Position numbers and translations under genes: made by a program
Notes under the pieces: generated by a model
What the model saw: only the letters and a program-made list of their open reading frames with translations
The model's database searches: none
What the model was told of the DNA's origin: nothing
Shown here: positions 1 to 13,004 of the stretch, piece by piece
Layout: every line of letters begins with the position of its first letter
Position numbering within the stretch: the stretch's first letter is position 1
Origin: Yersinia enterocolitica subsp. enterocolitica
Lineage (GTDB): Bacteria > Pseudomonadota > Gammaproteobacteria > Enterobacterales > Enterobacteriaceae
Assembly: GCF_901472495.1 (NCBI RefSeq)
Contig: NZ_LR590469.1
Coordinates: 3,372,993-3,404,992 of the forward strand
Direction: 5' to 3'
Length of the DNA: 32,000 nt

Positions 1-297
1 TACAGTGTGGTGCCAACCGTGAGGGTGCCCGCTCGGGATGCGCTTATCGGCGCACTGGTTGCTGCATTATTTTTCGAGCTTGGTAAGAAAGGATTCACGA
101 TGTACATCACACTGTTTCCATCTTATCAGCTGATTTACGGGGTACTGGCCGTTATCCCCATTTTATTTCTTTGGGTTTATTGGAGTTGGTGCATTGTGTT
201 GTTGGGAGCAGAGATTACGGTCACCTTGGGTGAGTATCGCGCACAACGCCATCAGGCCATTACAGAGAAGAGCCCGAGTCAAAGTCAGGAGATTTAA
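1..297 (+). CDS. yihY: YihY/BrkB (formerly RNase BN) family inner-membrane protein, C-terminal fragment; the gene starts upstream of the window
   Basis: The frame is open from base 1. The hydrophobic C-terminus ([18 protein letters not shown]...[27 protein letters not shown]) matches the remembered YihY family. It lies directly upstream of dtd, as in E. coli. Confidence 0.8.
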
Positions 298-303
298 GGC
301 ATT

Positions 304-741
304 ATGATTGCGTTGATTCAACGGGCGCTTAGCGCCAATGTGGTGGTTGATGGGGAAGTGGTGGGCGAGATAGGGCCTGGGTTACTGATATTACTCGGTG
401 TTGAACAGCAGGATACCGAGCAAAAAGCACAGCGCTTATGTGAAAAGGTGCTGGGTTACCGGATTTTTGGTGATGAGAACGACAAAATGAACCTGAATGT
501 TAAGCAGGCTGGGGGTAGTGTGCTGGTGGTTTCACAATTTACACTGGTTGCCGATACCCAAAAGGGCATGAGACCTAGTTTTTCTCGTGGAGCATCCCCA
601 GCAGAAGCTGACAGGCTTTATCAGTATTTTGTTGCCCAGTGTCGTGAGCATGGTGTAAAAACGGAAACGGGATTATTTGCAGCGGATATGAAAGTTAGCC
701 TGGTAAACGACGGCCCAGTGACGTTCTGGTTACAAATTTAG
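304..741 (+). CDS. dtd: D-aminoacyl-tRNA deacylase
   Basis: 145 aa, collinear with E. coli Dtd (MIALIQR...SQFTL.ADT.KG.RPSF...[13 protein letters not shown]). Confidence 0.95.
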
Positions 742-771
742 ATACGGGATTTCACCCAAGATTGAGGGTTA

Positions 772-962
772 TATACCCGCCATACTTCAAGCTGCATCTG
801 CGTTGGCTGCTCTCATTCACCCCCTGAATAAGCTTATCGGGATTAATGAGCTTCGTCCCTGAGGCTCACCCTGCGGGCTAGCATAAGTGCTGTTCAAATC
901 GGTTCCCGACTGATTTGTTACTCAACTGCCGCCGTCTCGCAACTCGAATTATTTAAGGTATA
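772..962. repeat. ERIC/IRU (enterobacterial repetitive intergenic consensus) element, enlarged variant of about 190 bp
   Basis: The left end TATACCCGCCATACTTCAAGCTGCATCTGCGTTGGCTGC...TCACCCC and the right end ...CGCAACTCGAATTATTTAAGGTATA match the remembered ERIC termini. The element lies in the dtd-yiiD intergenic region. It is longer than the canonical ~127 bp, implying an internal insertion. Confidence 0.7.
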
Positions 963-997
963 GATTTTATTGATAATTTTAACGAGAGAATGCTCCT

Positions 998-1921
998 ATG
1001 TATCACTTGCGTGTACCCACAACAGAACAAGAACTTAAAGATTATTATCAATTTCGTTGGGAAATGTTACGCAAGCCGCTACATCAACCGATAGGTTCTG
1101 AAAAAGATGCTTATGATGCAATGGCCCATCACCAAATGGTGGTGGATGAGCAGGGTAAACCTGTCGCTATTGGCCGCTTATATATTAATGCCGATAACGA
1201 GGCCGCGATTCGCTTTCTGGCGGTAGACCCATCAGTGAGATCAAAGGGGTTAGGGACGTTAGTTGCAATGACATTAGAGTCAGTCGCGCGTCAGGAAGGG
1301 GTAAAGAGGGTAGTGTGTAGCGCCCGTGAAGATGCGGTTGATTTCTTTTCTAAGCTGGGTTTTGTCAGTCAGGGGGAAATAACCGCGCCGCAAACTACGC
1401 CTGTTCGTCATTTCTTAATGATTAAGCCGGTCGTGACCATGGATGATATTTTGCATCGTCCGGATTGGTGCGGTCAGTTGCAGCAAGCCTGGTATGACCA
1501 TATCCCCCTTAGCGAAAAAATGGGGGTGCGCATCAGCCAATATACTGGCCAGCGTTTTGTCACGACCATGCCGGAAGCCGGTAATCAGAATCCTCATCAC
1601 ACCTTATTTGCTGGCAGTCTTTTCTCATTGGCGACCCTGACGGGCTGGGGCTTGATTTGGCTATTACTGCGCGAACGCCATTTAGGCGGCACTATTATTC
1701 TTGCTGATGCCCATATTCGCTATAGTGCACCTGTTACTGGGCGGCCAAGAGCAGTTGCAGAGTTAAGTTCGCTCAGTGGCGATTTGGATAGATTGGCTCG
1801 TGGTCGTCGTGCCAGAGTACAACTGGATGTAAATTTATTCGGTAATGAAGAGGCTGGTGCTGTATTTTCAGGAACCTATATGGTTTTACCCGTCGATGCT
1901 GAGGGTGATGGGGTTAACTAA
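998..1921 (+). CDS. yiiD: GNAT acetyltransferase fused to a thioesterase-like YiiD_C domain (YiiD/FabY)
   Basis: 307 aa, collinear with remembered E. coli YiiD from MYHLRVP ([16 protein letters not shown]..., [27 protein letters not shown]). Confidence 0.85.
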
Positions 1922-1932
1922 TTTTTATTATG

Positions 1933-1959
1933 CCCGTTCATTAATAACTAATGAGCGGG
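1933..1959 (+). terminator. Candidate Rho-independent terminator after yiiD
   Basis: Hairpin cccgttcatt / aataact / aatgagcggg with one G-U pair. The following T tract (tagtttggtg) is weak. Confidence 0.4.
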
Positions 1960-2256
1960 TAGTTTGGTGAGTCATATATTCCTTTCTTTAGTTAATATAA
2001 AGACGATGATATATGTATTCTATATTCCCTAAGATTTCAGGTTTATTTCTTAAATTCTTTCCCAATATATTCTGTAGTAGATCGAGTAAATAATACACTA
2101 GACTACATGAGGGAATAGTTATTTAATCACTCACCACCACTGTTAACATTTAGAATGTTAACAAGTAATGTATTGTCTCATATTAATATTGGTATTTAAT
2201 TTTCAGATTATACAATTGAATGATATTTGTAACCTTATAAATTAAGGAGAATTTAA

Positions 2257-2502
2257 ATGAATAAAGATTGGCATAGACAAGAAATATTAGCTGCTATACG
2301 TAAAAGGAAAGGCTCACTTTCAGCATTATCAAGAGACAGTGGTCTATCCTCAGGAACACTGGCTAATGCATTAACTCGGCCATGGCCAAAAGGTGAAATG
2401 ATTATCGCCGAAGCGATCGGTATTACACCACAAGAAATATGGCCAAGTAGGTTTATTGATTATCGAGGATGTAGCATTATTAGAAGAATAAGGAAAAATT
2501 AA
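2257..2502 (+). CDS. Ner/Nlp (SfsB) family HTH DNA-binding protein
   Basis: 81 aa. DWHRQEILAAIRKRKGSLSALSRDSGLSSGTLANALTRPWPKGEMIIAEAIG..P..IWPSR closely parallels remembered E. coli Nlp/SfsB and phage Mu Ner. A strong SD (aaggag) lies 8 nt upstream. Confidence 0.8.
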   Translation: MNKDWHRQEILAAIRKRKGSLSALSRDSGLSSGTLANALTRPWPKGEMIIAEAIGITPQEIWPSRFIDYRGCSIIRRIRKN

Positions 2503-2514
2503 ATAGGAGGTATA

Positions 2515-3201
2515 ATGGAAGCGTCACTATTCAATTCACTTAAAATGCTAATAAAATTCTGGGAATGCAGTTCCGAACCTTGGGGAGTAAAAGACAACCA
2601 ATCAAGATATGTTTATGCAAATAATAGGTTACATAAGTTATTTACTTTACCTGATAAATTTAGTATGGAAGGACGAACAGATGGTGAGCTTCCTACTCCT
2701 ATATCAGAATTCGAACTTGAATTTCAGGAGCATGACTGTAAAGTTAAACTACTACAAGACCGTGTAACTTCGGTTGAAATACATGCGTGGAATGGGCATT
2801 CATATTACCAACCTTATTTTTTTGATAAATATCCACTTATAGATGAGCATGGAGTATCTCAAGGTATCATTTCTCATAGTAGACCAGTAGAAGATGTAGT
2901 ATTAACACATCTAAATAAGATAAAAGTACCAATATCACTTATTTTGACCCCGCCATCTGACTTGTTTTCAAAAAGAGAGTGGGAGGTGTTATTTTATATT
3001 TTACACTCATTCTCAAGCATGGAAATTGCGACAAAACTTCATCTGTCATCAATAACGGTCGATAACATCATACAGAAAATATATAAGAAGATAGGTATTT
3101 CCGGCAGACAACAGTTGGTGGATTATTGCTATGAAAATAAAATTAATAATTATGTTCCGCAGAGCTTTTTTGAATACTCAGGTTCTTTTCCGTTGGTATA
3201 A
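2515..3201 (+). CDS. LuxR-family solo regulator, paralogue 1 of 5 (N-terminal sensor domain, possibly PAS_4-like, plus C-terminal LuxR HTH)
   Basis: 228 aa. The C-terminal motif KREWEVLFYILHSFSSMEIATKLHLSSITVDNIIQKIYKKIG is a LuxR/FixJ-type HTH. SD is aggagg. No luxI-type synthase is adjacent. Confidence 0.8.
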   Translation: MEASLFNSLKMLIKFWECSSEPWGVKDNQSRYVYANNRLHKLFTLPDKFSMEGRTDGELPTPISEFELEFQEHDCKVKLLQDRVTSVEIHAWNGHSYYQPYFFDKYPLIDEHGVSQGIISHSRPVEDVVLTHLNKIKVPISLILTPPSDLFSKREWEVLFYILHSFSSMEIATKLHLSSITVDNIIQKIYKKIGISGRQQLVDYCYENKINNYVPQSFFEYSGSFPLV

Positions 3202-3230
3202 GGATAAATTAAATGTAACAGGAGAATGTC

Positions 3231-3917
3231 ATGGATAAACCCCTAAAGAACCAATTGGAAATATTGATAAGGTTTTGGGAGCGTAGTTCAGAGCCTTGGG
3301 GGGCAAGAGATAATCAATCAAGATTTATTTATTCAAATGATCGACATCATAAATTATTGGGGTTATCAGATAAATACAATTTGGAAGGGCGATTAGATAG
3401 TGAATTACCTTCACCAACAGCCGCGTTTCAAATGGAGTTTCAGGCTCATGACCGTAAGGTAGAGTTATCGCAGGAGCGGATAACTTCAGTTGAAATACAT
3501 GAGTGGGATGGACTTTCATATTTAAAGCCGAATTTCTGTGATAAATATCCGTTAATAGATGAAAGTGGGGTGTCTCAGGGCATTATTTTCCATGTAAGAC
3601 CGGTGGAGGATATCATTCTGTCTCGCTTAACTAAAATAAAAGCACCTACGTCATTGACATTCACTCCGCCATCAAAATTATTCACAAAAAGAGAGTGGGA
3701 AGTCTTGTTTTATATTTCACACTCATATTCAAGTAAAGATATTGCCAAAAAACTTCACTTATCACCCAGGACAGTCAGCAATATTACTCAGTGTGTCTAC
3801 AGAAAAGCAGGCGTCTCTAACAAGCGGCAGATAGTCGATTATTGCTATGAAAATAAAATTAATAACTATGTTCCGCAAAGCTTCTTTGAGTACTCAGGAT
3901 CTTTCCCGTTAATATAA
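3231..3917 (+). CDS. LuxR-family solo regulator, paralogue 2 of 5
   Basis: 228 aa with the same architecture. The C-terminal ~95 aa are near-identical to copies 3-5. SD is aggaga in a conserved 28-29 bp spacer. Confidence 0.8.
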   Translation: MDKPLKNQLEILIRFWERSSEPWGARDNQSRFIYSNDRHHKLLGLSDKYNLEGRLDSELPSPTAAFQMEFQAHDRKVELSQERITSVEIHEWDGLSYLKPNFCDKYPLIDESGVSQGIIFHVRPVEDIILSRLTKIKAPTSLTFTPPSKLFTKREWEVLFYISHSYSSKDIAKKLHLSPRTVSNITQCVYRKAGVSNKRQIVDYCYENKINNYVPQSFFEYSGSFPLI

Positions 3918-3945
3918 GGATAATTTAATGTAATAGGAGAATGTC

Positions 3946-4632
3946 ATGGATAAACCCCTAAAGAACCAACTGGAAATACTAATAAGGTTTTGGGAGCACA
4001 GTTCAGAACCTTGGCAAATAAAGGATAGTCAATCAAGGTATATTTATGCAAACCCTAGATCTCATAAATTATTATCCTTACCGGCTAAGTATAATATGGA
4101 AGGGCGATTAGATGGCGAGCTTCCTTCACCAATATCTGAATTTCAAGCGGAATTTCAGCGACAGGACAGGCAGGTAGAATTATTACAAGACCGTATTACT
4201 TCGGCTGAAATACATATAGTTGATGGGAAATCCTATTTAACACCTTTTTTCTGTGATAAATACCCACTAATAGATGAAAACGGTATATCTCAGGGAGTTA
4301 TTTGTCATGCCAGGCCAGTTCATAATTTAATGTTAACTCGTTTAAATAAAATAAAAGCACCTACGTCATTGACATTCACTCCGCCATCAAAATTATTCAC
4401 AAAAAGAGAGTGGGAAGTTTTGTTTTATATTTTACACTCATATTCAAGTAAAGATATTGCCAAAAAACTTCACTTATCATCCAGGACAGTCAGCAATATT
4501 ATTCAGAGTGTCTACAGAAAAGTCGGTGTTTCAAACAAGCGACAGATAGTGGATTATTGCTATGAAAATAAAATTAATAATTATGTTCCACAGAGCTTCT
4601 TTGAGTACTCAGGATCTTTCCCGTTAATATAA
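3946..4632 (+). CDS. LuxR-family solo regulator, paralogue 3 of 5
   Basis: 228 aa with the same architecture and spacer as copy 2. Confidence 0.8.
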   Translation: MDKPLKNQLEILIRFWEHSSEPWQIKDSQSRYIYANPRSHKLLSLPAKYNMEGRLDGELPSPISEFQAEFQRQDRQVELLQDRITSAEIHIVDGKSYLTPFFCDKYPLIDENGISQGVICHARPVHNLMLTRLNKIKAPTSLTFTPPSKLFTKREWEVLFYILHSYSSKDIAKKLHLSSRTVSNIIQSVYRKVGVSNKRQIVDYCYENKINNYVPQSFFEYSGSFPLI

Positions 4633-4660
4633 GGATAATTTAATGTAATAGGAGAATGTC

Positions 4661-5347
4661 ATGGATAAACCCCTAAAGAACCAACTAGAAATATTGATAA
4701 GGTTTTGGGAACGTAGTTCAGAGCCTTGGGCGATAAAAGATAATCAATCAAAATTTATTTATGCAAACAGGAGAGTTTATAAATTATTTAATTTACCTAA
4801 TAAATATACCCTTGAAGGGCGGTTGGATGGTGAAATCCCAACACCATCTGCGGATTTTCAGGATGAGTTTCAGCAGCAGGATCGTCAGGTGGAATTATCT
4901 CAGGATCGAGTGACATCCGTTGATATACAGCTATATGATGGGTTCTCATATTTCACTCCTTATTTTAGCGATAAATATCCATTAATAGATGAAAATGGCG
5001 TATCTCAGGGTGTTATTTGTCATGCCAGGCCAGTGCAAGATATAATGTTAACTCATTTAAATAAGATAAAAGTACCAACGTCACTCATTTTCACCCCACC
5101 ATCAAAATTATTTACAAAAAGAGAGTGGGAAGTTCTATTTTATATTTTACACTCATATTCAAGTAAAGATCTTGCCGAAAAACTTCACTTATCACCCAGG
5201 ACAGTCAGCAATATTACTCAGAGTGTCTACAGAAAAGCCGGCGTCTCTAACAAGCGGCAGATAGTGGATTATTGCTATGAAAATAAAATTAATAATTATG
5301 TTCCTCAGAGCTTCTTCGAATACTCAGGTTCTTTTCCATTAATGTAA
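4661..5347 (+). CDS. LuxR-family solo regulator, paralogue 4 of 5
   Basis: 228 aa with the same architecture and spacer. Confidence 0.8.
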   Translation: MDKPLKNQLEILIRFWERSSEPWAIKDNQSKFIYANRRVYKLFNLPNKYTLEGRLDGEIPTPSADFQDEFQQQDRQVELSQDRVTSVDIQLYDGFSYFTPYFSDKYPLIDENGVSQGVICHARPVQDIMLTHLNKIKVPTSLIFTPPSKLFTKREWEVLFYILHSYSSKDLAEKLHLSPRTVSNITQSVYRKAGVSNKRQIVDYCYENKINNYVPQSFFEYSGSFPLM

Positions 5348-5376
5348 GGATAATTCAAAATCGACAGGAGGATATC

Positions 5377-6063
5377 ATGGACGAAACTCTAAAGAACCAA
5401 CTGGAAATACTAATAAGGTTTTGGGAGCGCAGTTCAGAACCTTGGGGGGCAAGAGATAATCAGTCAAGATTTATTTATGCAAATCCCAGTTATCATAAAT
5501 TACTTGCCTTACCTGATAAATACAGCCTTGAAGGGAGATTTGATGGAGAAGTTCCTTCACCAACCTCGGAGTTTCAAGATGCTTGGCAAGAGCATGACCG
5601 CAAAGTAGAGTTGTTACAGGATCGTATTACCAATATTGAAATACATGCGTGGAGTGGACGTAATTATTTCCAACCCTATTTCAGTGAGAAATATCCATTA
5701 ATAGATAATAATGGTGTCTCTCAAGGTGTTATTTTTCATGGTAAACCAGTGAATGAAATAATGTTAACGCATTTAAATAAGATAAAAGTACCAACGTCAC
5801 TCATTTTCACCCCACCATCAAAATTATTTACAAAAAGAGAGTGGGAAGTCTTGTTTTATATTTTACACTCATATTCAAGTAAAGATATTGCCAAAAAGCT
5901 TCACTTATCACCCAGGACAGTCAGTAATATTATTCAGAGTGTCTACAGAAAAGCCGGCGTCTCCAGTAAGCGACAGATAGTGGATTATTGCTATGAAAAT
6001 AAAATTAATAATTATGTTCCTCAGAGCTTCTTCGAATACTCGAAATCTTTCCCCCTTATGTAG
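5377..6063 (+). CDS. LuxR-family solo regulator, paralogue 5 of 5
   Basis: 228 aa with the same architecture. The spacer is slightly diverged (acaggagg). Confidence 0.8.
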   Translation: MDETLKNQLEILIRFWERSSEPWGARDNQSRFIYANPSYHKLLALPDKYSLEGRFDGEVPSPTSEFQDAWQEHDRKVELLQDRITNIEIHAWSGRNYFQPYFSEKYPLIDNNGVSQGVIFHGKPVNEIMLTHLNKIKVPTSLIFTPPSKLFTKREWEVLFYILHSYSSKDIAKKLHLSPRTVSNIIQSVYRKAGVSSKRQIVDYCYENKINNYVPQSFFEYSKSFPLM

Positions 6064-6074
6064 AAGTCTCTTTA

Positions 6075-6106
6075 CGCCGATTACGTTATATTTCACGTGA
6101 TCGGCG
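6075..6106 (+). terminator. Candidate terminator closing the LuxR array
   Basis: A 12-bp stem cgccgattacgt / loop tatatttc / acgtgatcggcg (one mismatch), followed by gtttgtgtt. Confidence 0.5.
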
Positions 6107-6159
6107 GTTTGTGTTCAGAGTCATTGCTGACAAAGCTTGGCAGCACTGTTTATGTTCGC

Positions 6160-7869
6160 TTACTGCCCCGCTACGCCATGCACCTCGCCGTTTTGCATCG
6201 TTTGATTAACTTGCTGCCCGTGGCTGTCAGTGGCTTGTAGAGAGCCATTAATGGTGGGTTTCAATGGCTTATCTGCTGTTAGGTTACCTGATATCCGTAA
6301 TTTCAGATTACCAAGCCCTTGTAACGGTAAAGCTGGCCAGCCCCAGTTTTGTAAGATATTAAGATCGACAGATCGGCCAGTCAGCGCAAGGGATAACGCT
6401 CTGCCTGGTGTTTGATCAATAGTAGCGGTGGCTTCCAGTAACCCCTCTTTGGTGAACGTACTCAAATCACTCACCGTAATCTGCTGTTCATTGGCGCTCA
6501 GAGCCAATGATGGGCGACGGACATCATTTTTATTAAAAGTCGCATTCCCAGCATTTAGCATCAATGAGCCGGACCACACTCCCCATTGGTGATTTTTAGC
6601 CAGCAGCAAATTAGTCCCCGCAGCATCCAGCGACGTAATTTGGAACGGGAAGTCCGGGCTGATATCAATCAATAAGTTACGGTTAGCATTCAACTTACTG
6701 ACATAGACCTCAGACAACCAATTTGGCAGCGTTTGTTGCCATTGCTGCTTCCAGTCTGTGGGTAGGGTATAAACCAGTGCCACCAGTGTTAGCTCATCGA
6801 GTTGTAGGCGGTGGTTATCACGCAGCCAGTTACCTTGAGCTCTTAACAGACCATCCTGCCAACGAGTGGAGAACTGATTGATTGCCACCCCAGCCGGTGA
6901 CAATGTAAATGTCGCGATTGGGTCAATCAGATGAATATTACCTTTAATAATGTCTCCAGCATTAAGGGATAATTCGCCTTCGTCACTTTGCCAGTCGCCT
7001 TGCTTAAACGTGATATTTTTCAGCGTGAGATCTAAATCATTAAATGCCCAGTTTTTCCCTTCAACACGGGCATCAATTAAATCAAATCGTTTTAGCGTGA
7101 TAGGAGGGAGCTGTAAAAATGTATTCCAGACATCTTCTAATGTCGCGGGAGTTTGTAGACGGATATTACTCAAGCGCAGGCGGTCGACCAGCCAACTTCC
7201 GTCAGCCGATTGACTGGCATTTCCAGTCAGTTCCCCTTGCGCAATATCAGCCCCAAAATTACTCAAAGTCAGGGCGTTTTTCTGTATAGAGCCTTGTAGA
7301 TAAAGTTTTTCGGCTGTGATGCCATTAATAGTCAAAGAGCCGGCACTAAACTGAAATTGAGCATTTTCACCCAGGCTATTACCGGGCAGTGGCTGCCAAG
7401 GGATCAATCCACCAGTGACTTGCTGACCTGTCACTTTCCACTGACCTGCCTTATTTTGCGGTTCAATAGTGGTATTCAGCGCCATATTGGTCAGCCTCAA
7501 AGTATCAGCCTGCAACGGTAGCGGTGAGGTGCTGTTATTGAGTGTTAAGCTTCCATTTTGCAAATTAAGGCTGCGAAAATGACGAGGCTCAGTCAGTTGC
7601 CGCCAACTCAGACCCAATACGGCCTGCTGGGCAATAAGAAACGCGGGTTGCTTGGCCCGGCCTAGCGTGACATCAGTAAAGCTGACTTGCCCAGGTTGGG
7701 ACCATGAGTGATCTATTTTCCCCAGAGAGAGGCGATATTCGCTGTTATCACTCACCCAGCGGCTTAGCCAACCGGCAGCCCAGCTGGTCTGAAGCAGCAC
7801 ATAGCACAGCACTATCGACAGCACTAGTAGCAGTAATAACGTTAGCAGCACTTTCCCGAGAAATTTCAT
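6160..7869 (-). CDS. yicH: AsmA-family protein YicH
   Basis: Collinear with remembered E. coli YicH. The start is set at the internal MKFLGKVLL (ATG at 7869), giving 569 aa, the same length as the E. coli protein. The ORF-track start at 7941 adds 24 non-conserved residues. Confidence 0.85.
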   Translation of the reverse strand: MKFLGKVLLTLLLLLVLSIVLCYVLLQTSWAAGWLSRWVSDNSEYRLSLGKIDHSWSQPGQVSFTDVTLGRAKQPAFLIAQQAVLGLSWRQLTEPRHFRSLNLQNGSLTLNNSTSPLPLQADTLRLTNMALNTTIEPQNKAGQWKVTGQQVTGGLIPWQPLPGNSLGENAQFQFSAGSLTINGITAEKLYLQGSIQKNALTLSNFGADIAQGELTGNASQSADGSWLVDRLRLSNIRLQTPATLEDVWNTFLQLPPITLKRFDLIDARVEGKNWAFNDLDLTLKNITFKQGDWQSDEGELSLNAGDIIKGNIHLIDPIATFTLSPAGVAINQFSTRWQDGLLRAQGNWLRDNHRLQLDELTLVALVYTLPTDWKQQWQQTLPNWLSEVYVSKLNANRNLLIDISPDFPFQITSLDAAGTNLLLAKNHQWGVWSGSLMLNAGNATFNKNDVRRPSLALSANEQQITVSDLSTFTKEGLLEATATIDQTPGRALSLALTGRSVDLNILQNWGWPALPLQGLGNLKLRISGNLTADKPLKPTINGSLQATDSHGQQVNQTMQNGEVHGVAGQ

Positions 7870-7961
7870 TCGGTATTTCCACGCCTGTCTGTATACGGAA
7901 CTCTGTTTATGCCGCAAATTGTCCATTAGCTCAATAGACAATCAGTTATCGAAGCATAAAA

Positions 7962-7993
7962 AAATGGCCGGTGTCATTTACGGCCGGCCATTT
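7962..7993 (-). terminator. Rho-independent terminator of xanP
   Basis: A perfect 10-bp stem aaatggccgg/ccggccattt. On the minus strand it is followed by a T7 run (A run at 7958-7964 on plus). Confidence 0.6.
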
Positions 7994-8015
7994 CAACGAC
8001 GTGTTAACGCAAAGA

Positions 8016-9401
8016 TTATTTTTCTTGTGGGAAGATGAGGTTAAGTACGATGGCAGTAATACCACCGGCAGCAATCCCGGAAGAAAGCAGGGTTTTGATC
8101 CAATCTGGTGCAAATTGCAGAATCAGTGGTTGCTGCGCCACGCCCATCCCAACCGCTAGTGACAATGCCATAATCATAATCGCGCGACGATTAAGGGTTT
8201 CGCGTGACACGATACGCACACCGGAAGCGGCAATTGTTCCGAACATCACGAGAGTGGCACCCCCCAGCACCGGCTCTGGGATATGTTGTACGAACCCAGC
8301 GACGGCTGGGAACAAGCCCAGTACAATCAGCATCAGTGCGACAACAAAACCGACATAGCGGCTGGCAACACCGGTTAATTGGATAACCCCATTATTTTGG
8401 CCGAAGCAGGAGTTAGGGAAGGTATTGAACACGGCTGATAGCATGGAGTTCAAACCATTCGCCAAAACACCACCTTTTAAGCGCTTCATATACAGCGGGC
8501 CATGAACGGGTTGCTCTGATACATCCGAGGTCGCCGTGATATCCCCGATAGTCTCAAGTGAGGTCACCATGAAGATAAGCATTAATGGCACCAGCAGGTT
8601 CCAGTCAAAAGATAAGCCATAGTATAGCGGCGTCGGGATGGTGATCAGTGCGGTGTCAACGACAGGGCGGCTTTCGGGCAGCATACCCAGCGTCCACGCT
8701 AACAGATAGCCCACAGCCATGGCGATAACCAGTGAGGCGACACGCAGATACGGGTTGCGCTGGCGGTTTAATAAGATAATGACCACGAGTACTGCGCCCG
8801 CCAACATGAGGTTTTTAGGTGAACCAAATGTATGGTCGCTCATCGCACCATAACCGCCACCAATAGATGTCAGCCCAACCTGAATCAATGACAGGCCGAT
8901 AATCATCACCACAATACCGGATACCAGTGGAGTGATAATGCGCCGCGCCAGATGCAGGAAACGGGATAATATAATTTCAGTACAAGATGCGACCATCAAG
9001 GTACCGAACAGGGCTGCCATCATGGTCGGGATATCCGCTCCGCCATTTTTCAGTGCCAAACCGCCCATAATCAGTGGAGAAACAAAGTTAAAACTGGTGC
9101 CCTGAATGGATAACAGGCCAGAACCAACCGGCCCCCAGGTTTTAATTTGTAGCAGTGATGCCAGACCAGAGGCAAACAGTGACATGCTGATAATTCGTTG
9201 AGTATCTTCCGCTGGTAGCCCTAGCGCCTGACAAATCAGTAAGCCAGGAGTTATCACTGCAACAAACATAGCCAATAAATGTTGGCATGCAGCAAACAGA
9301 GTTTGAGCGAGTGGGGGGCGGTCTTCTAAACGATAAATTAATTCGCTAGGGCGAGTGGTTGCCTGCTGTGGTGTATTAAGTTCGGCGGATTGCGTAGACA
9401 T
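8016..9401 (-). CDS. xanP: Xanthine/proton symporter (NCS2 family)
   Basis: Near-collinear with remembered E. coli XanP/YicE ([33 protein letters not shown]...). The start is set at MSTQSAEL (ATG at 9401) rather than the upstream ORF-track Met. Confidence 0.9.
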
Positions 9402-9639: not shown

Positions 9640-10854
9640 ATGTTTCATCTCGATACCTATGGCACGCTAGTCGCGGCCTGTTTGGTTTTATTGTTAGGCC
9701 GAAAACTTGTACAAACTGTCCCTTTTCTAAAAAAATATACCATTCCTGAACCGGTTGCAGGTGGTCTGCTGGTGGCTTTTATGATGCTGCTGATGCAAAA
9801 GACCCTCGGTTGGGAAATCAGTTTTGATATGTCGTTGAAAGATCCTTTGATGCTGGCATTCTTTGCAACAATCGGCTTGAATGCCAACCTGGCCAGTTTA
9901 CGTGCTGGCGGCAAGGCCTTGAGTGTGTTTGTCTTTGTGGTCGTCGGCCTGCTACTGATGCAGAACGCGATTGGTATTGCTCTCGCGAAACTGATGGGGT
10001 TAGACCCGCTAATGGGTTTATTAGCCGGTTCAATTACATTATCAGGTGGGCACGGCACGGGGGCGGCGTGGAGTAAAGTGTTTGTTGAGCGCTATGGCTT
10101 TGAAAATGCAACCGAAGTGGCTATGGCCTGCGCAACATTTGGTCTGGTACTGGGTGGGTTGATTGGCGGCCCGGTAGCTCGCTATTTGGTAAAACACTCT
10201 TCCACACCGGATGGCACCCCAGAGGATAGCGAAATCCCTTCTGCTTTTGAAAAGCCCTCTGCTGGCCGTATGATCACCTCATTGGTATTGACCGAAACTA
10301 TCGCCATGATCGCGATTTGCCTCATGGTTGGCCAAGTGATCTCTGCCGGGTTGCAGGGCACGATGTTTGAATTACCGACTTTTGTTTGTGTGTTATTCGT
10401 TGGGGTTATTCTCAGTAACACGCTGTCGGCAATCGGCTTCTATAAAGTGTTTGATCGCGCAGTCTCGGTGCTGGGTAATGTCAGTTTGTCTCTATTCCTG
10501 GCAATGGCTTTGATGAGTCTAAAGTTGTGGGAGCTGGCGTCATTGGCATTGCCGATGTTGGTGATTCTGTCGGTACAGGCATTGGCGATGGCACTGTACG
10601 CTATCTTCGTTACTTACCGGTTGATGGGCAAAAACTATGATGCGGCAGTGTTAGCTGCGGGGCATTGTGGTTTTGGTTTAGGCGCGACACCGACGGCTAT
10701 TGCCAATATGCAGGCCATCACTGACCGTTTCGGCCCATCGCATTTAGCCTTCCTGGTGGTGCCAATGGTTGGTGCGTTCTTTATTGATATCGTCAATGTG
10801 ATCGTGATTAAGCTATATCTGTTGCTGCCAATCTTCCCAGCAGTTGTGGGATAA
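9640..10854 (+). CDS. gltS: Sodium/glutamate symporter
   Basis: Collinear with remembered E. coli GltS from MFHLDT. A GGAG lies 8 nt upstream of the ATG at 9640. The ORF-track start at 9535 adds 35 non-conserved residues. Confidence 0.95.
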   Translation: MFHLDTYGTLVAACLVLLLGRKLVQTVPFLKKYTIPEPVAGGLLVAFMMLLMQKTLGWEISFDMSLKDPLMLAFFATIGLNANLASLRAGGKALSVFVFVVVGLLLMQNAIGIALAKLMGLDPLMGLLAGSITLSGGHGTGAAWSKVFVERYGFENATEVAMACATFGLVLGGLIGGPVARYLVKHSSTPDGTPEDSEIPSAFEKPSAGRMITSLVLTETIAMIAICLMVGQVISAGLQGTMFELPTFVCVLFVGVILSNTLSAIGFYKVFDRAVSVLGNVSLSLFLAMALMSLKLWELASLALPMLVILSVQALAMALYAIFVTYRLMGKNYDAAVLAAGHCGFGLGATPTAIANMQAITDRFGPSHLAFLVVPMVGAFFIDIVNVIVIKLYLLLPIFPAVVG

Positions 10855-10893
10855 TTCTGTTGTAAGATCATTCTGTTGTAAGATAATAGTTTT

Positions 10894-10917
10894 AAGGGGC
10901 GGTTTTATCCGCCCCTT
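10894..10917. terminator. Bidirectional hairpin terminator between convergent gltS and recG
   Basis: aaggggcgg / ttttat / ccgcccctt, flanked by T- or A-rich sequence on both sides. Confidence 0.6.
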
Positions 10918-10922
10918 ATTCA

Positions 10923-13004
10923 TCAAGCATTTGTATAACGCGTGCGCTCTGGTAGCCAGCGTTCTATCAATGCCTGCGCATGTTCGGGATATTGTTGATG
11001 TAGGTGGCGAGCTACCCGTTGCACTTCTGGGATCATTGCTTGGTCACGCAGTAAATCAGCCACTTTAAACTCGGCACTGCCGGTCTGACGTGTGCCTAAG
11101 AGCTCGCCGGGGCCACGTATTTCCAAATCCCGCTGAGCAATAACAAAACCGTCATTACTGTCGCGCAACACTTGCAAACGCATCTGAGCCGTTTTACTCA
11201 GCGGCGTTTTATACAGCAGAACACAGTGTGAAGCGACAGCACCACGGCCAACACGGCCACGTAACTGATGTAATTGCGCTAATCCTAATCGCTCTGGGTT
11301 ATCGATAATCATCAAACTGGCATTTGGAACATCAACCCCAACTTCAATGACTGTGGTGGCAACCAGTAACTGCAATTCACCTTGCTTAAAGGCTAACATA
11401 ACAGCCTGTTTTTCTGGCCCTTTCATCCGTCCATGAACCAAACCGACTTTAATCTCCGGCAAGGCGATTTTCAGCTCTTCGCAGGTGACTTCAGCAGCCT
11501 GAGCTTCTAACAGTTCAGATTCTTCAATTAAGGTACAAACCCAATAAGCTTGCCGCCCCTCTTCTAAACAGGCATTTTTGACCCGTTGAATAACATCACT
11601 GCGGCGGGTATCCGGAATTGCCACTGTCGTGACCGGAGTTCTACCCGGTGGCAGTTCATCGATTACTGAGGTATCAAGATCAGCATAGGCAGTCATGGCC
11701 AATGTTCGGGGAATGGGTGTTGCGGTCATAATCAACTGGTGCGGATGGAAGCCTTGCTCCTCGCCCTTTTCCCATAATGCGAGCCGCTGATGAACACCAA
11801 AACGATGCTGCTCATCAATAATAACGAGAGCTAATCCAGAGAATTGTACTTGTTCCTGAAACATGGCGTGAGTCCCCACGACCATAGAGACTTGGCCACT
11901 AGCGACCGCTTCTTGTTGTGCCAGGCGCGCCTTGCCTTTTTGTTTCCCAGCCAACCAGCCAACTTCCAAGCCTAAAGGCTCCAGCCACTGGCGGAAAGTA
12001 TTCGCATGCTGTTCAGCCAGTAATTCAGTCGGCGCCATCAATGCAACCTGCTTACCGTGCGCAATAGCGCGCAGTGCAGCCAGTGCGGCAACCAGTGTTT
12101 TGCCAGAACCCACATCCCCTTGAATCAGCCGCATCATGGGGTAGCTATGCGTCATATCTTGTTCGATTTCCGCCACGACCCGCTGCTGGGCATGGGTTGG
12201 CGTGAAGGGCAATGCCGCAAGAAAACGTCGTTTAAGTTGTTCTTCGGGTAACAGTGGTAGCGCCCGATAGCTCTGCGCTCCCGCTCTGACTGCCAGCATA
12301 CTGAGGTTATGGGCTAGCAATTCTTCCATTATTAGGCGCCGCTGTGCGGGATGTTTGCCCTGCTCTAAATCAGCTAGTTGAATATCTGCTGGTGGACGAT
12401 GCAAAATATGAATAGCTTCTGGCAAGCTGATCAGTGAGCGGCTTAATTCAATCGGTAGCAATTCGGCAATAACACTGGAGTCCAGCATCGCCAGTGCTTG
12501 ATCAATCAGTTTACGCAATGTTGCCTGACGAATACCTTCCGTGGTGGGGTAAACGGGGGTCAATGACTCCTGCAATTCAACACCAATATTTTCGCCATGC
12601 ACCCGATATTCTGGATGAATGATTTCTGGGCCGGTATTACCCCGTTTAGCTTCACCATAGGCAATCACATGCTTGCCTGGAGATAAGCTATTTTTCATCG
12701 CGGCATTGAAGTTGAAAAAGCGCAGGGTAAGCACACCGCTACCATCGCTGATTTGGCAGGTCATCATACGGCGGCGGCCAAAACTGATATCTGAACGGAG
12801 AACTTCACCTTCAACAGTGACCGACAGTCCGGGCAACAGATCGCCAATTCGGTATAACCTGGTGCGATCCTCATAACGTAACGGAAGGTGAAGCAACAGA
12901 TCTTGAATGGTTTCCAGCCCCATCTTCGCCAGCTTTCCAGCCTGACTGGCACCAACACCGGAAAGTGTACTCAGGGGTACGGCATCCAGTAGGCGACCTT
13001 TCAT
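10923..13004 (-). CDS. recG: ATP-dependent DNA helicase RecG
   Basis: 693 aa with helicase motifs (GDVGSGKT, DEQHRFG) and the E. coli length. It sits in the conserved spoT operon position. Confidence 0.97.
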   Translation of the reverse strand: MKGRLLDAVPLSTLSGVGASQAGKLAKMGLETIQDLLLHLPLRYEDRTRLYRIGDLLPGLSVTVEGEVLRSDISFGRRRMMTCQISDGSGVLTLRFFNFNAAMKNSLSPGKHVIAYGEAKRGNTGPEIIHPEYRVHGENIGVELQESLTPVYPTTEGIRQATLRKLIDQALAMLDSSVIAELLPIELSRSLISLPEAIHILHRPPADIQLADLEQGKHPAQRRLIMEELLAHNLSMLAVRAGAQSYRALPLLPEEQLKRRFLAALPFTPTHAQQRVVAEIEQDMTHSYPMMRLIQGDVGSGKTLVAALAALRAIAHGKQVALMAPTELLAEQHANTFRQWLEPLGLEVGWLAGKQKGKARLAQQEAVASGQVSMVVGTHAMFQEQVQFSGLALVIIDEQHRFGVHQRLALWEKGEEQGFHPHQLIMTATPIPRTLAMTAYADLDTSVIDELPPGRTPVTTVAIPDTRRSDVIQRVKNACLEEGRQAYWVCTLIEESELLEAQAAEVTCEELKIALPEIKVGLVHGRMKGPEKQAVMLAFKQGELQLLVATTVIEVGVDVPNASLMIIDNPERLGLAQLHQLRGRVGRGAVASHCVLLYKTPLSKTAQMRLQVLRDSNDGFVIAQRDLEIRGPGELLGTRQTGSAEFKVADLLRDQAMIPEVQRVARHLHQQYPEHAQALIERWLPERTRYTNA

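Follow-up and report, generated by a model that had tools for sequence, protein, structure and literature searches.

The DNA considered here is a stretch of 32,000 nucleotides from Yersinia enterocolitica subsp. enterocolitica (contig NZ_LR590469.1, positions 3,372,993 to 3,404,992), hereafter called the window, and the subject of this study is a tandem array of five genes in it that encode receptors of the PAS_4-LuxR type related to VqmA. The best protein matches are to sequences named Y. enterocolitica. The gene order at the locus is rbn, dtd, yiiD, a gene for a Ner-like protein, the five array copies, a convergent gene at 6160–7941 and a xanthine/uracil permease gene. The copies are + strand open reading frames (ORFs) of exactly 687 bp each (228 aa), repeated with a period of 716, 715, 715 and 716 bp: copy 1 at 2515–3201, copy 2 at 3231–3917, copy 3 at 3946–4632, copy 4 at 4661–5347 and copy 5 at 5377–6063. 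The spacers between them measure 29, 28, 28 and 29 bp and each contains an AGGAG motif 7–8 nt 5′ of the ATG, in exact agreement with the initial annotation, which had read from the letters alone five 687-bp genes separated by 28–29-bp spacers with a conserved Shine-Dalgarno sequence.

Nucleotide identity along the genes, taken in 60-nt windows, is not uniform. Among copies 2–5 it amounts to 0.85–0.90 at nt 1–90, falls to 0.63–0.80 at nt 91–390 and rises again to 0.86–0.96 from nt 391 to the stop codon, whereas copy 1 differs from the others along the whole gene (0.55–0.82) but reaches 0.91 in the last ~90 nt. The N-terminal 23 aa are the same in copies 2 and 4, with one residue off in copy 3 and two in copy 5, and copy 2 shows an overall identity of 67–81% with the other copies. 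This is the pattern of near-identical ends, differing middle and more diverged first copy that had been described before, and the C-terminal motif then quoted is found in the protein translations. The divergent middle, here called the sensor core (nt 70–390 of the gene), lies in copies 2–5 at window positions 3300–3620, 4015–4335, 4730–5050 and 5446–5766 respectively. Tandem Repeats Finder, with its maximum period of 500, reported no repeat, and no two copies share an exact repeat of more than 80 nt. The five-copy array is not an assembly artefact: the exact copy-3 protein is present on 21 contigs, among them six contig groups of more than 1 Mb, and the five-copy arrangement was recovered in another assembly with only 9 differing positions across 12.7 kb (locus L009) as well as in 13 further similar places.

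The system itself is already known. Heermann and Fuchs (2008; PMC2266911) reported the ye0035–0039 cluster of PAS_4/LuxR receptors in Y. enterocolitica and proposed insect hormone sensing for such receptors; the array in the window is either this cluster or the corresponding one of a closely related strain, which gives a source to the Y. enterocolitica cluster mentioned in the initial annotation. The likeness extends to the five-gene clustering and the organism group with no difference in kind, and both ye0035–0039 and the Photorhabdus receptors share with the array the domain architecture, the lack of an AHL (acyl-homoserine lactone)-binding domain and the lack of an adjacent luxI. The class was later named PAS4-LuxR solos, the reason for their clustering and redundancy being called unknown (Brameyer et al., 2014; PMC4235431), and YE0039 is among the genes of strain 8081 that are missing from strain W22703 (Fuchs et al., 2011; PMC3079665). 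In the searchable literature, PMC2266911 and PMC4235431 included, no segmental concerted evolution, cassette-and-block layout, deletion junctions or Yersinia-wide sensor lineages were found. The literature likewise yielded no functional study of ye0035–0039, one 2026 match on locus tags not having been assessed, and nothing on Plu2018/Plu2019 past the 2014 review.

All five proteins possess a PAS_4 domain at aa ~16–127 followed by a GerE/LuxR helix-turn-helix (HTH) at aa 150–204 in Pfam, as expected of the PAS_4-LuxR solos to which they had been likened earlier. PAS_4 (PF08448) scored 29.0–41.0 bits in copies 1, 3, 4 and 5 (2.4e-10 in copy 3) at a cutoff of 23.1, and 21.5 bits (E 2.8e-4), slightly under that cutoff, in copy 2; PF00196 scored 45–51 bits in all five (cutoff 23.5), and NCBIfam gave HTH-level matches only, far under its cutoffs. 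The absence of an AHL-type N-terminal domain and of luxI, also proposed beforehand, was borne out, since no match to the AHL-binding domain Autoind_bind (PF03472) was obtained in the five proteins at E up to 1, and neither luxI nor any other autoinducer synthase was found among the 26 ORFs of at least 150 aa in the window. The AHL-binding receptors LuxR, TraR, SdiA and YenR share with the array proteins the C-terminal GerE/LuxR HTH and the one-component logic from ligand to transcription, but their ligand-binding part has the Autoind_bind (PF03472) fold whereas that of the array proteins has a PAS fold.

The closest characterised relatives of the array proteins are the DPO (3,5-dimethylpyrazin-2-ol) receptors VqmA of Vibrio cholerae and of phage VP882. 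A profile built from 80 homologues matched in the PDB the phage VP882 VqmA (7DWM) with E=6e-30 and the V. cholerae VqmA (6UGL, 6KJU, 6IDE) with ~6e-24, profile positions 9–224 being covered, and matched SdiA, RhlR and CviR through the HTH alone. Copy 3 aligned by tblastn to phage VP882 with 29.8% identity over 91% coverage (E 3e-21). In line with the proposal that structure prediction and profile search should reveal a sensor fold, the AlphaFold2 model of copy 3 (predicted local distance difference test, pLDDT, of 78, with low confidence in the linker 127–142 and in the tail) comprises an N-terminal helix, a five-stranded PAS core and a four-helix HTH. When it was submitted to Foldseek, ranks 1–8 were all VqmA chains (E 3.5e-15 to 3.5e-13, probability 1.00) and the match after them reached an E of only 1e-6; the template modelling scores to VqmA were ~0.5, for which a differing domain orientation may be the cause. 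The likeness to VqmA thus covers full-length sequence (~26–30% identity), fold and the order of the parts, namely N-terminal helix, PAS, flexible linker, LuxR HTH and a tail with a V/I-P-x-x-L/F motif. The difference lies in the arrangement: VqmA is encoded by a lone gene beside the gene of its target small RNA, vqmR, whereas in the array a Ner-like gene is followed by five copies in tandem, and a search of window positions 1–9000 at E up to 1 gave no match to any Rfam family, vqmR-like or other.

According to the VqmA papers, DPO is held by F67, F99 and K101, Y36 determines the preference for DPO over Ala-AA, the N-terminal residues 7–15 cross over and stabilise the dimer, and promoter choice is determined by the DNA-binding domain. 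These residues were mapped onto the array by sequence alignment only, with HMMER and MAFFT in agreement, and conservation was counted among 152 Yersinia sequences. The equivalents of K101 (position 105) and D71 (position 74) are Lys and Asp in all five copies and in 150/152 and 152/152 sequences respectively, and the F67 equivalent (position 70; F/F/F/F/W in copies 1–5) is aromatic in all 152. The Lys and Asp that anchor DPO in VqmA are thus retained in the array. The remaining pocket positions are variable among the copies: Y36 at position 39 (L/H/S/V/Y), H97 at position 101 (Y/N/F/Y/Y), F99 at position 103 (F/C/C/S/S) and F116 at position 120 (S/F/C/C/F). Position 39 ranks first of 107 positions for being fixed within a sensor lineage and different between lineages. 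Such a combination of a common anchoring mode with differing pocket linings would point to related but distinct small ligands. In the recognition helix (aa 179–193), copies 2–5 vary among themselves at four positions only, whereas copy 1 departs from their consensus at 6 of the 15 positions. Because the helices of copies 2–5 are near-identical, these copies probably bind the same operator(s), and it is a reasonable inference that many inputs may converge on one output in copies 2–5.

Synonymous divergence (dS) indicates that the conserved ends of the copies and their sensor cores differ in age. Between copies 2–5, dS reaches 0.98–1.49 in the sensor core (aa 24–130) and only 0.20–0.56 in aa 131–228, where the lowest value, 0.20, is that of copy 2 against copy 3. 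The parsimony-informative sites of the same four copies support three incompatible topologies in successive segments of the gene, 24|35 at nt 34–63, mainly 25|34 at nt 73–369 and 23|45 at eleven sites in succession between nt 395 and 453. The runs test on these sites yielded P=5e-5, and their longest run, 11 sites, P=2.5e-4. A GENECONV-like permutation of the longest identical tract was also significant for the pairs 4–5 (P=0.0004), 3–5 (0.0014), 2–3 (0.003) and 2–4 (0.006).

Comparison between genomes separates the two modules further. The set comprised nine genomes, that is the window and eight further Yersinia with the same locus and flanks and 2 to 7 copies. The nearest neighbour was a paralogue of the same genome for 22/32 C-terminal halves compared with 6/32 sensor cores, and C-terminal halves were nearest to same-genome neighbours in seven of the nine genomes; those of copies 2–5 lie at mutual nucleotide distances of 0.061–0.071, their best match in another genome being at 0.13–0.18. 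Copy 2 and copy 2 of Yersinia sp. HM-2024 differ by a dS of 0.17 in the core but 1.25 in the C-terminal half, and copy 5 and copy 3 of Y. artesiana by 0.51 and 1.79, the flanking genes giving 0.17–0.38 and 0.29–0.53 for the two genomes. In copies 2 and 5 the cores therefore descended vertically at a normal rate while the C-terminal halves were replaced within each genome. Copy 1 behaves otherwise: in each of the three segments it is closest to its orthologues. The initial annotation had suggested concerted evolution or gene conversion of the ends, and the dS contrast, the incongruent site patterns and the orthologue-versus-paralogue comparison all strongly support that suggestion.

The homogenised sequence does not respect gene boundaries, and each block runs from the end of one copy into the start of the next. 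Block 1 (3621–4014, + strand) takes in the last 297 nt of copy 2, the spacer that follows and the first 69 nt of copy 3, with an identity of 0.86–0.96 and a 72-nt exact repeat common to copies 2 and 3. Block 2 (4336–4729, +) joins the 3′ end of copy 3 through the spacer to the 5′ end of copy 4, a 54-nt exact repeat being found at 3918–3971 and 4633–4686, and block 3 (5051–5445, +) joins copy 4 to copy 5 in the same manner and holds the 80-nt exact repeat (5054–5133, identical to 5770–5849). Homogenised blocks of ~395 bp therefore alternate with cores of ~320 bp. Segmental concerted evolution is known from bacterial multigene families, of which tufA/tufB is an example. The array resembles such families in that, within the converted segment, paralogues resemble each other more than orthologues do, diverged sequence flanks the conversion tracts and unequal crossovers alter the copy number, but it differs in that only the dimerisation and DNA-binding modules are homogenised and the ligand-binding module is exempt. 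No evidence was found for programmed variation of the array.

The sensor cores tell a different history. In the nine genomes, every core of the window is closest to a gene of another genome and not to a paralogue in the window: copy 1 to HM-2024 copy 1 (nucleotide distance 0.118), copy 2 to copy 2 of Yersinia sp. HM-2024 (0.044, or 95.6% identity), copy 3 to Y. artesiana copy 2 (0.125), copy 4 to Y. aldovae copy 5 (0.187) and copy 5 to Y. artesiana copy 3 (0.106). The dS to the closest relative resembles that of the flanking genes in four of the five core types, the counterparts of copy 4 being distant. At 75% amino-acid identity, at least 21 groups can be told apart among the cores of the 152 Yersinia sequences. 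Synonymous sites are saturated between paralogous cores, and the ratio of non-synonymous to synonymous divergence (dN/dS) is 0.17–0.27 between paralogues and 0.04–0.23 between orthologues. The earlier view of a diversifying sensor did not hold, since no excess of non-synonymous change is present, and positive selection acting over the whole sensor region is rejected by these ratios (0.04–0.27 overall), although episodic selection on a few core sites might have occurred long ago. The cores are old, conserved lineages under purifying selection and the active process is the homogenisation of the ends. The cores may be spared because selection protects them, or because their divergence of more than 25% blocks conversion.

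Copy number varies from 2 to 7 between Yersinia species and from 3 to 5 within Y. enterocolitica. Among the assemblies with an identical copy-3 protein, a four-gene variant (locus L010) ends in a chimeric gene that matches copy 4 through nt 393 and, starting with nt 474, copy 5, the interval between being exactly the 80-nt exact repeat of block 3; others with the same copy-3 protein are without copy 2, the junction falling in the spacer and 5′ block. Public assemblies also contain contigs that break within the array (L012) and a single-copy contig of 806 bp (L013), and the array had indeed been described as prone to copy-number change and assembly collapse. Closed chromosomes of the common Y. 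enterocolitica lineage have three copies. The first of these is copy-1-like with 89% identity overall, the second combines a sensor type missing from the window with a copy-4-like C-terminal half, and the third is a chimera whose N-terminus resembles that of copy 5, whose core is of the copy-2 type (98% identity) and whose C-terminal half differs. In the closed 4.55-Mb chromosome CP139460.1, whose flanks are 98.4–98.5% identical to those of the window, the third array gene (L014, 7432–8292) was called as 286 aa instead of 228; the gene runs into the convergent one downstream, and its C-terminal part is altered. In Y. aldovae ATCC 35236, two of the seven array members (L007, 4573–5256 and 8158–8835) are frameshifted and could be pseudogenes or draft assembly errors.

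Upstream of the array, the Ner-like gene (2257–2502, +) encodes a Ner/SfsB-like HTH_35 protein of 81 aa (Pfam HTH_35, 8e-31; NCBIfam SfsB, 2e-28, under the curated cutoff). Its stop codon is 12 bp 5′ of copy 1, and in each of the Yersinia loci examined the gene immediately precedes the array. A sigma-70-like candidate promoter (TTGGTA-16-TACAAT, 2189–2216, +), with 9/12 consensus matches only, lies in front of it, and a terminator-like hairpin with a 12-bp stem lies at 6075–6106 (+) between copy 5 and the convergent gene, for which no Pfam match was obtained; this hairpin is the sole terminator-like site on the + strand, none being found between the copies. The arrangement suggests a six-gene operon formed by the Ner-like gene, likely the first, and the five copies. 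The GC content of the Ner-like gene and array is 35.7% against 45.2% in the rest of the window, with 26.6% in the upstream intergenic region, as would be expected of an acquired AT-rich island of the chromosome, placed between yiiD and the convergent gene, that is possibly silenced by H-NS.

Two further elements lie in the upstream region. The block GAGTAAATAA-N25-TTATTTAATC at 2084–2128 (+), an inverted repeat with 90% complementarity, is kept in all eight compared Yersinia loci and is a candidate promoter or operator element of the putative operon. A perfect 23-bp palindrome, TGTTAACATT-AGA-AATGTTAACA (2141–2163), has 10-nt arms with 100% complementarity and is centred ~37 bp upstream of the -35-like hexamer. 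It is partially conserved, in the closest relatives only (loci L001–L003), by rough estimate it is near chance when all spacings are allowed, and TGTTAACA has no second occurrence in the 32-kb window; it may be regarded as a low-confidence candidate operator. Elsewhere in the window, a PAS-GGDEF-EAL protein of cyclic di-GMP turnover is encoded at 22621–24423 (- strand), ~16 kb from the array. A 500-aa protein at 26701–28203 (- strand) matches the PADLOC dCTP-deaminase anti-phage model (E=8e-179) and Pfam dCMP_cyt_deam_1; the GC content around its gene is 0.31–0.33 over 26.8–29.2 kb, and the adjoining ORF of 295 aa (28237–29124) has a weak match (2e-5) to a Toll/interleukin-1 receptor (TIR) effector, the two genes probably forming a small defence island.

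The family extends far beyond Yersinia. In the representative library it comprises 316 clusters (50% identity) at E up to 1e-10, and ten of the top-scoring clusters were looked up, those with a name coming from Erwinia, Pantoea, Serratia, Photorhabdus, Enterobacter and the insect symbionts Fukatsuia and Arsenophonus. Relatives are also carried by 164 plasmids (Arsenophonus 53, Enterobacter 26, Yersinia 19, and others) and by the phages VP882 and Sodalis phiSG1. The VqmA papers confine homologues to Vibrio and phage VP882, which is too narrow a statement given these relatives across the Enterobacterales; a 2019 review had already termed VqmA a LuxR solo with a PAS4 domain. In Photorhabdus, an HTH_35 (Ner-like) gene stands beside a PAS4-LuxR gene (L021, 1241–1453), and this pairing may be older than the Yersinia array. 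Also in Photorhabdus L021 (WSFB01000011.1), two genes 8 kb apart (2142–2822 and 10747–11427) have C-terminal halves that are 92% identical (dS 0.32) and sensor cores that are 69% identical (dS 1.35). This non-adjacent pair shows the same module-specific homogenisation as copies 2–5.

Altogether, the locus is best read, and with good confidence, as an operon of VqmA-like receptors in which old sensor cassettes with differing inputs are embedded in recurrently homogenised blocks. Each paralogue is a one-component receptor of the PAS_4-LuxR-solo/VqmA family, built of an N-terminal helix, which in VqmA crosses over in the dimer, a PAS ligand core, a flexible linker, a LuxR-type HTH and a conserved tail. 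The ~320-bp sensor cassettes are separate old lineages kept by purifying selection, whereas the ~395-bp blocks of copies 2 to n are homogenised recurrently, through gene conversion within the array or through unequal crossing-over. These blocks double as crossover sites at which whole units are deleted, so that copy number and cassette content vary between species and between lineages of one species. Copy 1 is a stable anchor that evolves vertically, with an N-terminus and a DNA-binding domain lineage of its own, and outside its last ~90 nt it escapes homogenisation. Each paralogue would bind a different small molecule in a VqmA-like pocket, in which the K101 and D71 equivalents are kept and the lining residues differ, and copies 2–5 acting on the same operator(s) would pass several chemical inputs to a common transcriptional output.

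Several results weigh against this reading. In two sampled Photorhabdus arrays (L021 and L022), adjacent tandem copies are diverged over their full length and show no regular mosaic, so the mosaic is not general to the family; the sample consists of these two loci and the large plu0918–0925 and plu2001–2019 clusters are not included in it. The four-copy variants, for which the drafts are GCA_028842765.1 and GCA_028846645.1, stem from short-read assembly, in which loop-skipping by the assembler could mimic a clean deletion. The pocket positions taken as a set show a lineage-specific variation of 0.88 against 0.61, which is a mild enrichment given without a significance test, and among them position 39 alone stands out. 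Of the three residues that contact DPO in VqmA, F99 has no conserved equivalent, and as the Y36, H97 and F116 equivalents vary as well, DPO as the ligand is not implied. Finally, between copy 1 and the corresponding gene in the closed chromosome of the same species (L014, 6001–6687) the difference amounts to 11%, while the other flanks differ by 1.5% and the Ner-like gene 12 bp upstream by 1.6% in the same pair of genomes. This divergence is not explained by vertical descent plus intra-array conversion, and its boundary suggests imported alleles or old polymorphism beside such conversion.

The same sharp step from 1.6% to 11% is an argument for an alternative in which cassettes change mainly by import from other Yersinia, through horizontal transfer and homologous recombination via the blocks or flanks. 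The common lineage indeed has a sensor type that the window lacks, the island is AT-rich and members of the family travel on plasmids and phages; but import on its own gives no reason for C-terminal halves to be closest to their same-genome neighbours in most of the genomes compared, and as the main process it is unlikely. Import and intra-array conversion are compatible and both probably operate. A less probable alternative still is that copies 2–5 are young duplicates whose age is shown by their ends and whose cores split fast under positive diversifying selection. Some pocket-equivalent residues do differ between copies, as this would predict, but the core dS of ~1.0–1.5 is saturated, dN/dS remains low between paralogues as well as within core lineages, and four of the five core types are closest to another species at a flank-like dS. 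It is very improbable that the conserved ends are due solely to purifying selection for the dimerisation helix and the DNA-binding domain, with no conversion and a uniform age along the gene. The HTH and tail are strongly conserved in protein across the 80 homologues and dN/dS is low everywhere, in keeping with that view, but between paralogues the core exceeds the ends 3–5 fold in dS, the topologies of consecutive segments are incompatible and the C-terminal halves cluster by genome; moreover, between orthologues it is the C-terminal part that has the higher dS, which means that its synonymous sites are unconstrained and rules out simple HTH constraint. An artefact of assembling a repetitive region, be it for the five-copy array or its variants, has next to no probability left, since the in-array contig breaks, the 806-bp single-copy contig and the four-copy drafts that could speak for it are outweighed by the unique 320-bp core of each copy, an inter-copy exact repeat of at most 80 nt, the recoveries in L009 and 13 similar places, the copy-3 protein on contigs of more than 1 Mb and the closed chromosomes with the three-copy form.

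Beyond a VqmA-like operon with homogenised blocks, a more far-reaching proposal can be made, although it is doubtful: the array may be a combinatorial receptor bank, in which homogenisation was selected so that copies 2–5 heterodimerise on one operator and integrate pairs of ligands. The homogenised parts correspond to the dimerisation helix and the DNA-binding domain and so would leave room for heterodimers, which is speculative. The blocks would then serve as arms for swapping, losing or gaining cassettes between lineages, and the ligands might be DPO-like pyrazinones or small heteroaromatics from the microbiota or invertebrate hosts, anchored by the Lys.

What is new here is the quantified module-specific concerted evolution, the evidence for block-mediated loss of copies and the link to VqmA at the level of residues. 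PAS4-LuxR solos are a large class of long-orphan receptors, and the result sharpens the experiments on them rather than adding a new type of system. If the reading of old cassettes between homogenised blocks is true, copies 2–5 should have one common operator and copy 1 should not share it. The VqmA pocket alignment points to the residues and to a first chemical class (DPO, Ala-AA and pyrazinones), and as the sensor types are conserved lineages, one screen for each would be transferable across Yersinia. At the array locus, assemblies from short reads break or lose units. Moreover, strains of one species differ in the sensors they possess, which matters when insect or host phenotypes are compared between biotypes of Y. 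enterocolitica.

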